64,000 bases of DNA from Escherichia phage vB_EcoM_G2540-3: the sequence record MK327944.1. The stretch is one strand, 5' to 3'. Below the pieces are notes generated by a model. That model ran no database searches. It was not told the DNA's origin and saw only the letters and a program-made list of their open reading frames with translations. Shown here one piece after another: positions 12,600-17,165 of this stretch (its first letter is position 1; each line of letters starts with the position of its first letter). Both the position numbers and the translations under genes were made by a program.

Positions 12600-12782
12600 T
12601 TATTTTGCCCAGGGAGCCCAGGGCGGAGGGTCAAGATGGTATGAAGCTAGTTCTTCTAAAAGAGCATCTGGAGCTTCAATTCCATAATTCTGTAATACTA
12701 TACGGTACTCTTTCTTATAATCACTAGAATCATTCTGGATATTCATAGAATGATTATCTTCTAACATCTCAAATAAATCCAT
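12600..12782 (-). CDS. hypothetical small protein, 60 aa
   Basis: ORF only. Confidence 0.4.
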   Translation of the reverse strand: MDLFEMLEDNHSMNIQNDSSDYKKEYRIVLQNYGIEAPDALLEELASYHLDPPPWAPWAK

Positions 12783-12790
12783 ATTAATTC

Positions 12791-13273
12791 CTAGCGATAA
12801 AAACCAAAATAACGATTAGCTTCAATAATTTTTCTTTCTTCTTCGGACATTCTCCAGCGCAGTCCAACATCAAAATGAGCCCAGACCATCTTAACAAATG
12901 CATTTATATCTTTAATATCTTCAATAATGAATGTTTTACTTTTAGAAGGTTGACCTGCTAAATTAAGCGCTAATTTAACTTTATCGTCTTCAAACAGGTC
13001 AAAAAGACCATATTCATGGGCTCTTTTATAGCCTTTAATAGTTAAAGCTTCAGAAGAAGAAAAAGGTGAATCAGTATTCTGCAAAATATCTTCAGTATGC
13101 TTTATAATTAGAATAACATTTTCTGGATATTTTCTTTCTTTTATATCTTTAATTAAAATATCCGGATTTTCTGCTAAAGGAATAATTAATGAGCACTTTT
13201 TATCAAGTGTATTTACTGATTTACCTTCTTTAGACATAAATTCTATTGAATAATGTTTTGCTACTTCAATCAT
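12791..13273 (-). CDS. hypothetical protein, 160 aa
   Basis: ORF in the early array (T4 mrh region). Confidence 0.5.
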
Positions 13274-13430
13274 GTGATTTCCTCTTGCCTACTAATGGGC
13301 CGTCAGGAATTTTGTTTTCCTGGATATATTTCTCATTTTCTTCCATCATTTTACTGCCAATTTTAAGAAGCAAATCCAGTGCTTCATTTGCTTTAGCCTT
13401 GGCCTCTTCTAGCGTCATGTTCTTGTTCAT
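13266..13430 (-). CDS. hypothetical small protein, 54 aa (below ORF-track cutoff)
   Basis: [21 protein letters not shown]...; exactly fills the gap between neighbours, with ATGA overlap to the downstream start. Confidence 0.4.
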
Positions 13431-13630: not shown

Positions 13631-14090
13631 TTGTTTTACCTAAAACAATAGTAGGAGCATCGTCAAATTCATGAATTTTTAGCAATTTTGGATTTAAATT
13701 ATTCCATACATAATAAATAAAGTATGATAAAGCATCTTCACTCGCAATTATAAATTTATTTCCTTCATTTATTTTCCAGTCATATACTGAATCGTACGAA
13801 TAAAAAGATAAAGGATTACCATTATATTGTTCTGCGCTAACATTAATGTATTCGGATTTAGTAAATGCTTCAATTGCTCTAAACGGACTATTTGGCACAG
13901 TTTCAATAATTCCGATCTTTTTAAGTTTTATTTCAACATCTTCTGGAACTGGCATTGAAACGAAATTTTCTACGAGATACATAGGGTTACAATAACCCTT
14001 ATCAATCACTACGGCTACAGTAATTGGAACATCTTTAGCAAACAACATGCTATTACTGCTAATATACATTTCAAACAAAATCGCTTCCAT
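13605..14090 (-). CDS. hypothetical protein, about 161 aa
   Basis: Start set at ATG 14090 with RBS GAGGAAAATT. Confidence 0.5.
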
Positions 14091-14098
14091 AATTTTCC

Positions 14099-14593
14099 TC
14101 AATCGCAAGATGTAGATGAACAACCAGAATCACAAGAACTTCCACATGAATCACCAGTCCAAGAACTAACAGCCGTGACTGTTATAATAGGAGCGGTATC
14201 GATATAGCTTTCTGAACGTCTTGAATCTAAATGTTCTTTTAACTTTTTAGAATTCAATGGAAGCGCACCTGCACCAACATTACCAGCTTTTTCTGGTTGA
14301 CGAATAATTTCTTCCATCGTATCGTCGCTCGCATAAACATTAGTATCATATGAATCAGAACTAGACTGTGTATTAGATGATGTAGTAGGTGTTGACCAGC
14401 GCCAAGGATTTTTATAATATTCTTGGGCTTCTTCATAAGTCATAGTAACTGCTTCTACTGTTCCATCTCCCATATAAACATACTCAACTACAGTTAAAGG
14501 AAGGTAGTCATTTGAAATAGGAACTACACCTTCCCCAGGAGTCGTAGAGAAAAAATCCGTAAAGAAACTTTTAAACCAATTAAAGATAAACAT
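14099..14593 (-). CDS. hypothetical protein with hydrophobic N-terminus and Cys/Ser-rich C-terminal tail, 164 aa
   Basis: N-terminus [15 protein letters not shown]; C-terminus [21 protein letters not shown]. Confidence 0.5.
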
Positions 14594-14799
14594 TACAAAA
14601 AGCCTCTTTTGAATTCAACTTGCTTCTCACCATAATCATATCGAATCTCTGCATTAAATTCGACAGAGCCATCTGCGTACATCATAAATGAATGCACAAC
14701 AACTTCTGTAGACCATGGTTGTAGTTCATATTTCTTCATTACATGTCGTGAAATGATAATATCTAAATCTTCATTTGGTTTAATCCAGCGATTTAACAT
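14593..14799 (-). CDS. hypothetical small protein, 68 aa
   Basis: ORF with early promoter at 14826..14855. Confidence 0.5.
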   Translation of the reverse strand: MLNRWIKPNEDLDIIISRHVMKKYELQPWSTEVVVHSFMMYADGSVEFNAEIRYDYGEKQVEFKRGFL

Positions 14800-15165: not shown

Positions 15166-15173
15166 TATTTATA
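15166..15173 (-). promoter_or_regulatory. late promoter (soc)
   Basis: Minus strand TATAAATA about 30 nt before the soc ATG. Confidence 0.7.
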
Positions 15174-16020
15174 AACCATTTTCAAACCTCTTTATCATAT
15201 TTATATAGTTTTCATCGGGATAACCTAGACTAACTGCTAACTTTCTAAAATTGACATATTTAGGTTTGTTGTTATTAATCCATAATTCTCTAAGCTCTTT
15301 TTCATAATTCCATTTAAGTTGATTTCTGCGTGCAGTTTTGCTTAAAGTTTTTCCTTTAGCTTTTAAAGCCTTTTCGGATGACTGTTTTAATTTTTGAATA
15401 TTTAAAACTTCTTCTATAGATAAATTATTTTCCTTTGAATACCTTATGCAAAAATCTTTTACTACGGCTATTAGGCAATTTTTGTGAGTACCTAAAATTT
15501 CTGGATTATTTTCTTCAACTAAAATTCCCCAATATCTTCGGTAGCGAGGCATATCCCTTGAAATCCAGTCATTATACCAAAAATCAAAGTTGGAATACAT
15601 GAAAGATTTTCTTTTGCGAAGAGTATCTTGGTTTATCCATTGCTCACGTTTATCAGCCCATAACTTAATAGTAAAGTCTTTCTCTAAGTCAGAAAGCTTC
15701 TTAAATTGCGAGCTATTTACTGAGGTCATTCTCTGGAATGCATTCAGCAGTCCAAATCTTCCAGTTGAACATAAGAGATAGTGAACATATATGTGTTGAT
15801 ATATTGGGAGATATACTCTATTCCAAGGATATATTTTAAAATCACTATACTCAGGAAATGCGCATTTAGGAAGTATATGATGGGCTTCTGTTTTAGATTT
15901 AATGTTAGTGTTTAACTTATACTTATCTATAATTTTTAAGTACTCATCTAAAAGTTCCCATTGCGGGAACTTTTCTTTAAGAGCAGATTTGAAATTAATA
16001 TCCATTATCTTGACGTTCAA
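15169..16020 (-). CDS. HNH (Mob-type) homing endonuclease, 283 aa
   Basis: EAHHILPK...H motif; C-terminal LRELWINNNKPKYVNFRKLAVSLGYP module shared with four paralogues in the window. Confidence 0.75.
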   Translation of the reverse strand: MNVKIMDINFKSALKEKFPQWELLDEYLKIIDKYKLNTNIKSKTEAHHILPKCAFPEYSDFKIYPWNRVYLPIYQHIYVHYLLCSTGRFGLLNAFQRMTSVNSSQFKKLSDLEKDFTIKLWADKREQWINQDTLRKRKSFMYSNFDFWYNDWISRDMPRYRRYWGILVEENNPEILGTHKNCLIAVVKDFCIRYSKENNLSIEEVLNIQKLKQSSEKALKAKGKTLSKTARRNQLKWNYEKELRELWINNNKPKYVNFRKLAVSLGYPDENYINMIKRFENGL

Positions 16021-16514: not shown

Positions 16515-17165
16515 TTATTTTTCCTTTCTTATGAAGTTTTCTATCATATGTCTATAGCAGATATTAGGATAACCTGCCTTGACAGCTATTTTATTAAATT
16601 TTGTGCGCTTAGGTCTATTATTATAAACCCATAATTCATAAAGCGCATCATAACTATTCCATATTTCTCCTCGCCTAGGATTTGGTAAACCATATCGAGG
16701 CGAATTTTTACCGCTAAATCTTCCTTTTCGGGCTTTACTCATATTAGCCTTGGCTTCATCGGATATAATTTTACCTTTATGAGCTAGACGCATTTTGGCT
16801 TTAGTTTCTTCTGGAGTCTTTTTACCTTTAATCCATGACGGCTTGCCATATCTAGGATTATTTTCACCCGAGAAAAGAACAGAGTTTTGGATTTTAAGGG
16901 TTTCTATTAATCTACTTGTTAATTTAACACCTTTATTATATCGCATTAAATTTACAGCATAATGCAATCCTCTCACATCTGGATATATTTTAGTTAATAA
17001 TCTATGAGCTATAAAATGCTCACGCGCAGTTAACTCAACAAGATTGTTTTTGCCATCTGCTCCTCCCATACATCTAGGAATTATATGATGGCGTTCTTTA
17101 TATCCGCCAAGATGCCGGCATTTAGCTTTTGTAATTAAAGCCGAGTAAATTTTTTGGTAATTCAC
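16515..17165 (-). CDS. HNH (Mob-type) homing endonuclease, 216 aa
   Basis: HHIIPRCMGG...NLVELTAREHFIAH motif; MotA-box middle promoter upstream. Confidence 0.8.
   Translation of the reverse strand: MNYQKIYSALITKAKCRHLGGYKERHHIIPRCMGGADGKNNLVELTAREHFIAHRLLTKIYPDVRGLHYAVNLMRYNKGVKLTSRLIETLKIQNSVLFSGENNPRYGKPSWIKGKKTPEETKAKMRLAHKGKIISDEAKANMSKARKGRFSGKNSPRYGLPNPRRGEIWNSYDALYELWVYNNRPKRTKFNKIAVKAGYPNICYRHMIENFIRKEK

Follow-up and report, generated by a model that had tools for sequence, protein, structure and literature searches.

The Mrh.1 accessory proteins of T4-like enterobacterial phages share a Cys-Asp C-terminal tail under strong purifying selection

Phage T4 is the best-studied lytic phage, and roughly half of its early genes have no known function. 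Several described proteins resemble parts of the product considered here. The C-terminal SEC-C motif of SecA and the tails of SlyD and HypB are short, flexible and terminal, and they place metal-binding Cys residues on proteins that are otherwise unrelated; all three tails are basic or His-rich. MinD and FtsA carry amphipathic helices that target the membrane, and the lambda CIII protein is an amphipathic-helix inhibitor of FtsH. FxLD lanthipeptide precursors (TIGR04363) have a Ser/Thr/Cys-rich extreme C-terminus that follows a conserved N-terminal part, a layout also found in Mrh.1. The closest described relative is T4 Mrh.1 itself (NP_049642; DUF7206, PHROG 2031), which is the same gene at the same position between mrh.2 and mrh.

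We analyzed a 64,000-nucleotide stretch of DNA from Escherichia phage vB_EcoM_G2540-3 (sequence record MK327944.1), hereafter referred to as the window. This stretch is a Tequatrovirus segment with 94-97% identity to many Escherichia, Shigella and Yersinia phages. The mrh.1 reading frame lies on the minus strand, which the initial annotation did not state, and both terminal protein strings quoted in that annotation match the translation exactly. Compared with the window protein, T4 Mrh.1 is identical over the N-terminal 86 residues apart from an NTQ repeat, and its 20-residue tail is the same except at positions 146 (T/A) and 157 (G/S), but it lacks the 54-codon segment that encodes residues 87-140 of the window copy. 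Mrh.1 proteins of the Dhakavirus type, such as those of phages Bp7 (AEN93830) and IME08, share the N-terminal helix, the PGEG motif, the YVYxGDG hairpin and the terminal S-C-D. Their module B is 75% identical in amino acids to that of the window protein. In contrast, they are without module A, which is found in Tequatrovirus-type Mrh.1, and they end in a two-Cys tail with a conserved Tyr, WTGDSSYS(SY)DSGSCDSSSSSCD, where the window protein has four Cys residues. The features of the locus are collected in Table 1.

Table 1. Positions of mrh.1, its encoded elements and neighboring signals in the window
Feature	Position	Strand	Basis or remark
mrh.1 CDS, long form, 164 aa + TGA	14099..14593	minus	ORF list and translation; 495 nt
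N-terminal amphipathic helix, residues 1-15 (predicted)	14549..14593	minus	AlphaFold helix 3-15
PGEG motif, residues 18-27	14513..14542	minus	P19 and P25 invariant; E21 and G22 nearly so
E-Y-V-Y-M-G-D-G-(T/M)-x-E-x-V core, residues 37-49, predicted beta-hairpin	14447..14485	minus	Most conserved part of the family
Module A: helix and Ser/Thr-rich linker, residues 50-86	14336..14446	minus	Alignments
54-codon segment, residues 87-140	14174..14335	minus	Missing in T4, T2 and ~500 other Tequatrovirus records
C-terminal tail, residues 145-164	14102..14161	minus	Conserved across family; dN/dS; disordered in both AlphaFold models
Family-conserved S-C-D-S, residues 153-156	14126-14137	minus	
Family-conserved terminal S-C-D, residues 162-164	14102-14110	minus	
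mrh.2, 68 aa, PHROG 1873	14593..14799	minus	Stop overlaps mrh.1 start (TAATG)
Early-type promoter-like site ahead of mrh.2, GTTTAC-17-TGGTATAAT	~14855-14826	minus	Sequence
Terminator-like hairpin 3' of soc	14891-14870	minus	Terminators in phage Kha5h have been annotated at this spot

It is near certain that the product is an orthologue of T4 Mrh.1 and a member of DUF7206. The window protein matches the Pfam model at 118.2 bits (cut-off 25.6, E = 3e-34), its N-terminal 67 residues alone score 50 bits, and the match to PHROG 2031 has E = 2e-37. The DUF7206 motif residues W6, K8, P19, P25, Y38, Y40, G42, D43, G44, C163 and D164 are all in place, and phage KRT47 has a protein of the same sequence as the window copy (100% identity), labeled "similar to phage T4 Mrh.1". 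A word-indexed search of 5.8 billion proteins returned 28 relatives, and a full profile search with HMMER, run on 1.84 billion cluster representatives, returned 32 clusters. Every relative with a named source comes from a T4-like phage, with hosts in Escherichia, Shigella, Salmonella, Citrobacter, Klebsiella, Enterobacter, Serratia and Yersinia. Mrh.1 is an accessory protein restricted to T4-like phages of enterobacteria.

The PADLOC models of defense and anti-defense systems gave zero matches to Mrh.1 at E ≤ 10, and a search of PDB sequences found no solved relative (top hit E = 0.033). The record of Escherichia phage BW-1 (P0078) calls its mrh.1 orthologue a "prohead assembly scaffold protein", a name that finds no support here. 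No mention of mrh.1 or DUF7206 was found in the text of the searchable literature, and Mrh is treated in a T4 structural genomics study from which Mrh.1 is absent (PMC8076793). Mrh.1/DUF7206 is thus a family that is already catalogued and uncharacterized, of which the window carries the rarer long allele. Within the searchable literature, the terminal S-C-D...C-D signature seems not to have been reported before, and it corresponds to none of the functional classes that we could compare it with.

On the minus strand, the genes follow in the order 56 (dCTPase), a homing-endonuclease-like ORF, soc, mrh.2, mrh.1, mrh, srh, modA.4/3/2 and modB. The soc-mrh.2-mrh.1-mrh-srh arrangement is common to the window, T4, T2, Kha5h and KRT47; at two divergent loci (L021 and L022), the mrh.1 homologue stands directly after soc and mrh.2 is absent. 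An AAGAGG Shine-Dalgarno sequence lies upstream of the mrh.1 start, and the mrh.1 stop codon falls within the Shine-Dalgarno sequence of mrh (TGAGGAAAATTATG). Mrh.1 had been called an early protein in the initial annotation, and the promoter-like site and the terminator-like hairpin of soc ahead of mrh.2-mrh.1 are consistent with that description.

Two apparent overlaps touch the end of the gene. The ORF list starts mrh at an upstream TTG (14123), which would make it overlap the mrh.1 tail (14091-14123, minus strand). Relatives have mrh annotated from the ATG at 14090, which follows a GAGGAAA sequence, and therefore mrh does not truly overlap the coding sequence of the tail. At L021 (3248-3496) and L022 (3311-3538), a modA.4-like ORF, if read from its first ATG, would run over ~55 nt of the mrh.1 tail in a different frame; this ORF probably begins further downstream.

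Other features of the neighborhood were recorded along the way. A 283-aa ORF (15169-16020, minus strand) separates soc from 56, at a place that in T4 is taken by the GIY-YIG gene segF; the window ORF is annotated as an HNH or homing endonuclease in relatives and has no Pfam hit. A 216-aa endonuclease-like ORF (16515-17165, minus strand) carries a NUMOD3 motif and an HNH-like "HHIIPRCMGG" sequence. These two ORFs flank gene 56, and the mobile-element content of this region is unlike that of T4. In several GenBank records, orthologues of ModA.2/3/4 (12600-13430, minus strand, in the window; also L001, H3-H6 and H10) are labeled as the periplasmic molybdenum-binding protein of a molybdenum ABC transporter, which looks like a confusion with the E. 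coli gene name modA. ModA.3 (12791-13273) is a paralogue of Mrh (Pfam T4_MRH, 129 bits). A PADLOC match between mrh.2 and BrxC (E = 0.0066, 12 bits) was taken as noise.

All four Cys residues of the window protein (C150, C154, C158 and C163) are found within its last 15 residues, with the spacing C-x3-C-x3-C-x4-C. At the Cys frequency of the window (1.4%), the probability of at least four Cys in 15 residues is ~4e-5, and no comparable Cys tail was found among the window's credible ORFs besides mrh.1. Loss of the tail in orthologues and its origin by frameshifted read-through had been set beforehand as refuting outcomes, and neither is observed: about 50 members from enterobacterial phages end in ...S-C-D-S-x(4-10)-C-D, and the tail is not a frameshift product. 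A fuller family consensus reads ...S-Y-D-S-G-x-S-C-D-S-x(4-8)-C-D, with the shorter spacer range. Among 52 full-length members, 51 end in Cys-Asp and one ends in Cys-Asn. Outside Tequatrovirus, the tails of these full-length members have exactly two Cys residues; across the set, 4-10 residues separate the last two Cys, with a single case of 18. The first tail Cys shifts by a residue or two in some members (D-C, C-S-D), and the Cys/Asp chemistry is maintained. The last 30 residues of the 52 proteins contain 3-5 acidic residues and ~27-53% Ser/Thr, and the only basic residue among them is one Arg in one sequence. The tail itself is free of His and Lys.

C154 and C163 of the window protein are the family-conserved Cys residues, and C150 and C158 are Tequatrovirus-specific additions. 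The latter positions are Tyr or Ser in other lineages, one nucleotide away from Cys (TAT or TCT to TGT). All four Cys are invariant in 31 distinct Tequatrovirus protein variants, which were drawn from cluster members; an IMG/VR harvest by way of the mrh start yielded mostly chance matches. The initial annotation had taken a repeated C-x-(S/G)-x-C spacing as the defining feature of the tail, and this does not carry over to the rest of the family, where there are two Cys and a variable spacer. Judged from the alignments, the conserved units of the tail are S-C-D-S and a strictly terminal C-D, rather than a repeated Cys spacing.

Pooled Nei-Gojobori estimates of dN/dS are 0.13 in the N-terminal core and 0.08 in module B, compared with 0.04-0.08 in the tail. 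Within the tail, Ser is encoded by TCA, TCG, TCT, TCC, AGC and AGT, so that even the codon class (TCN or AGY) changes, and both the Cys codons (TGT/TGC) and the Asp codons (GAT/GAC) vary. Together, these results show that the Mrh.1 tail is under strong purifying selection at the protein level.

The middle modules of the protein are gained and lost between lineages. The 164-aa long form is present in only 8 of 563 phage records; the short form is the one seen in T4 (113 aa), in T2 (110 aa) and in some 500 further records. When the window gene is aligned at the DNA level with those of T4 and T2, the two forms are found to differ by a clean in-frame indel of 162 nt, which corresponds to the 54-codon segment. 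Most of module B, which is common to the Dhakavirus-type proteins, sits in this segment. Module B is 78% identical in nucleotides to that of phage Bp7, and this value lies inside the 66-84% range of the flanking genes. Therefore, the long form looks ancestral and the T4 form appears to be a 54-codon in-frame deletion; recent import of module B from a Dhakavirus is not supported by the same comparison. The Ser/Thr-rich middle described in the initial annotation is indeed present, at residues 67-86. All of the architectures (short, long and Dhakavirus-type) keep the N-terminal elements and the tail, and therefore the middle of Mrh.1 is dispensable.

Smaller polymorphisms were also seen in the gene. 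A 9-nt tandem repeat that encodes NTQ (~14350-14368, minus strand; residues 75-80) occurs as AACACACAG or AATACACAG, with two copies in T4 and Kha5h and one copy in the window and T2. Frameshifted or truncated alleles are rare: the one in Escherichia phage ERS-1 (P0007) encodes 141 aa with an unrelated C-terminus, and the one at L011 (2095-2181) encodes 28 aa. Such alleles are expected because the gene is non-essential, and they are consistent with either a dispensable gene or sequencing errors in homopolymer runs.

We used AlphaFold2 to model the window protein (24 sequences) and a two-Cys family member (50 sequences). Mean pLDDT values were 52 and 59, respectively, and Mrh.1 is predicted to be mostly disordered. 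Both models contain a short N-terminal helix, a beta-hairpin and one or two further short helices, and in both the Ser-rich linker and the tail are disordered. In the window protein, pLDDT falls below 50 from residue 67 onward and remains below 50 in the tail; the tail of the two-Cys member has values of about 45-53. The hairpin is the best-predicted part (pLDDT ~70, strands 34-40 and 46-52), and it recurs in the two-Cys member. Its residues Y40, G42, D43 and G44 do not vary across 33 diverse sequences, and the preceding consensus PGEGxVPIS holds in 50 sequences. Only the N-terminal amphipathic helix, PGEGxVPIS, the hairpin and the acidic, Ser-rich, strictly C-terminal tail are universally conserved.

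The N-terminus follows the family consensus M-I-x-W-L-K-x-L-F-K, with W6, K8 and F15 invariant in one family alignment. The initial annotation had called this region strongly hydrophobic. A short helix with a hydrophobic face is indeed predicted there, but it is amphipathic and is neither a membrane-spanning segment nor a signal: the first 15 residues are broken by K8 and D13, and Lys occupies positions 6 and 10 of the consensus MIxWLKNLFK. We rejected a signal peptide or transmembrane anchor, since there is no uninterrupted hydrophobic core of at least 10-18 residues. The hydrophobic moment is 0.41 for the window protein, 0.63 for the consensus and 0.80 for the Dhakavirus type, and only 2-6% of shuffled sequences reach the observed value. 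The membrane-targeting sequences of MinD and FtsA give 0.45-0.57. The Mrh.1 N-terminus thus has the combination that marks helices of the MinD/FtsA type, namely a short helix, a high moment and flanking basic residues. In this predicted helix, W/L/F line one side and Lys the opposite one, and we infer that it binds a membrane or a partner. The lambda CIII protein offers another possible parallel, as mrh.1 shares its operon with the sigma-32-related genes mrh and srh. Mrh.1 has no homology to MinD, FtsA or CIII, and its helix is N-terminal.

Two genome-wide screens of T4 include mrh.1. In the supplement to the CRISPRi-ART study, knock-down of mrh.1 has a fitness value of 0.79 with P = 0.069 and is scored as "Semi-fit", a class that lies above the fold-change threshold of 0.7 and is not statistically significant (PMC11879866). 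According to the same supplement, mrh.1 is one of five "Semi-fit" genes of purely unknown function, which are thereby marked as possible contributors to fitness, and mrh.2, mrh, srh and soc are "Not fit" (PMC11879866). In the HIDEN-SEQ transposon sequencing data, insertions are tolerated at 31 of 31 TA sites of mrh.1, and the gene is therefore classed as "Non-essential" (bioRxiv 10.1101/2025.11.20.689424). The single conditional comparison row for mrh.1 in the part of that data set considered here shows no effect (log2FC -0.16, p 0.69), and mrh.1 is not among the conditionally essential genes given there for RexAB, RnlAB, CBASS, DarTG1/2 and minimal medium (bioRxiv 10.1101/2025.11.20.689424). 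T4 mrh.1 is thus non-essential and, at most, marginally relevant to fitness.

We considered what function could keep this tail intact. Of the roles suggested in the initial annotation, metal binding or redox activity is a reasonable conjecture; a modification site has in its favor just the sub-threshold match to a lanthipeptide precursor model described below. Our leading proposal, which we hold tentatively and regard as somewhat doubtful, is that Mrh.1 is a host-directed effector whose flexible tail chelates metal through thiolates and carboxylates. Under this proposal, a largely disordered Mrh.1 would be synthesized within minutes of the onset of infection, its N-terminal helix would bring it to the inner membrane or to a partner, and specific binding would come from the beta-hairpin. 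The flexible tail could then clamp a metal ion through its two Cys-Asp units and the free terminal carboxylate. The clamped ion might be Mrh.1's own (Zn, Fe or Cu) or one that resides in a host metalloprotein. Tequatroviruses would have strengthened the site by acquiring a further pair of thiolates where other lineages have Tyr or Ser.

A chelating loop is favored over a rigid motif because the length and composition of the spacer vary and the first Cys wobbles, because Cys is consistently paired with Asp, and because the additional Tequatrovirus Cys residues replace Tyr or Ser, which are potential O-ligands. The density of Cys is four in 15 residues in Tequatrovirus and two in ~20 elsewhere. 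By analogy with the tails of SecA, SlyD and HypB, the Mrh.1 tail is likewise short, terminal, flexible and Cys-containing, and its metal binding is hypothetical. Unlike those tails, it is acidic and Ser-rich, has no His or Lys and ends in Cys-Asp.

Several observations argue against metal chelation. Most members have two Cys and no His, and therefore the site would be weak in a metal-buffered cytoplasm. Neither AlphaFold model builds an ordered metal site (tail pLDDT <55), and AlphaFold is usually confident on canonical zinc sites. Pfam scans of Mrh.1 contain neither SEC-C (PF02810) nor any other metal-binding family, and searches of Pfam, NCBIfam and PDB sequences gave no match above threshold to a metal-binding family. 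Because insertions are tolerated and the knock-down effect is borderline, no phenotype points to metal biology. A canonical zinc finger or ribbon was rejected in any case: the family conserves just two Cys residues and has neither a CxxC nor a His, the spacing varies and the tail is disordered.

Docking through a motif that requires an unblocked C-terminus would account just as well for the strict terminal position, and such a function is possible and almost as likely as metal chelation. Here, x-C-D-COOH together with S-C-D-S would form a short linear motif that enters a host-protein pocket that reads the free C-terminus. The Cys residues would serve as determinants of shape or hydrogen bonding, or would form a covalent or disulfide link to the target, and no metal would be involved. 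The motif is strictly terminal in 52 of 52 members and is never extended, and a disordered tail on a largely disordered protein is typical of linear motifs. Very strong purifying selection on a short stretch, and middle modules that are freely lost or gained, are also in keeping with docking. However, variable spacing and a wobbling first Cys would be unusual if a single rigid pocket read the motif, the protein has no known partner, and the doubling of the Cys residues in Tequatrovirus is not obviously explained.

We regard it as unlikely that the tail acts through thiol chemistry, either by forming a reversible disulfide or by offering its thiols as a sacrificial decoy, for example to host oxidoreductases or to a reactive product of defense. 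Exactly two conserved Cys residues with a flexible spacer of 4-10 residues would suit an intramolecular disulfide loop, and Cys residues are the most conserved in the tail. Yet Mrh.1 has no signal peptide and therefore stays in the reducing cytoplasm, and its Cys residues are in neither a CxxC nor a thioredoxin-like context. A redox function also leaves unexplained the equally conserved Asp after each Cys, the acidic, Ser-rich composition and the presence of four Cys in Tequatrovirus.

It is very improbable that Mrh.1 is a RiPP-like precursor, in which an N-terminal leader would direct enzymatic modification (thioether, azoline or similar) of a Ser/Cys-rich core. The layout of the protein does resemble a leader followed by a C-terminal Ser/Thr/Cys-rich core, and the T4-type tail weakly matches the core of NCBIfam TIGR04363 (E = 0.0024, 17.9 bits). 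No RiPP family is matched above threshold, however: the scores for this model are only 15.3-17.9 bits against a cut-off of 30, and the two-Cys tail gives no match; the resemblance is therefore probably compositional. Unlike the FxLD precursors, Mrh.1 has no maturase-like gene among its neighbors (soc, mrh.2, mrh (T4_MRH), srh, modA.2-4 and modB), and at 100-164 aa it is much longer and is long for a precursor. To our knowledge, T4 is without a YcaO, LanB/C/M or RiPP radical-SAM maturase. Finally, the chance that the tail is meaningless low complexity, that it arose as an artefact of read-through or a frameshift, or that it is conserved only through a DNA or RNA signal that overlaps it (such as the Shine-Dalgarno sequence or promoter of mrh) is negligible: the position of the mrh.1 stop, the simple composition and the rare frameshifted alleles (P0007 and L011) could suggest it, but the amino acids are kept as codons change across lineages, with Ser codon class switches and a dN/dS of 0.04-0.08, the tail is present where the downstream gene differs, and it is in frame with the conserved N-terminus in about 50 divergent proteins, which together refute this reading.

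Returning to metal chelation, a more specific version of the proposal can be drawn, although we consider it a long shot. Mrh.1 would represent a new class of small disordered effectors whose strictly C-terminal S-C-D...S-C-D-COOH tail serves as a thiolate/carboxylate clamp on the metal center of an inner-membrane host enzyme. A candidate target would be a zinc protease such as FtsH, which controls sigma-32, and on which Mrh.1 might act in the manner of a cysteine-switch inhibitor. Such a target would link mrh.1 in function to mrh and srh, with which it shares an operon.

The comparison of family members defines a minimal conserved architecture, consisting of the N-terminal helix, the hairpin and the terminal S-C-D...C-D, which gives a precise handle for cheap experiments. 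The natural variants already amount to deletion experiments on the middle modules of Mrh.1. The protein is therefore best seen as a well-defined target for simple experiments rather than as a surprise. If the tail binds neither metal nor a host protein, then mrh.1 would be an ordinary dispensable accessory gene. If it does bind metal or a host protein, then the tail would be a new small motif among the tools that phages use for host takeover.
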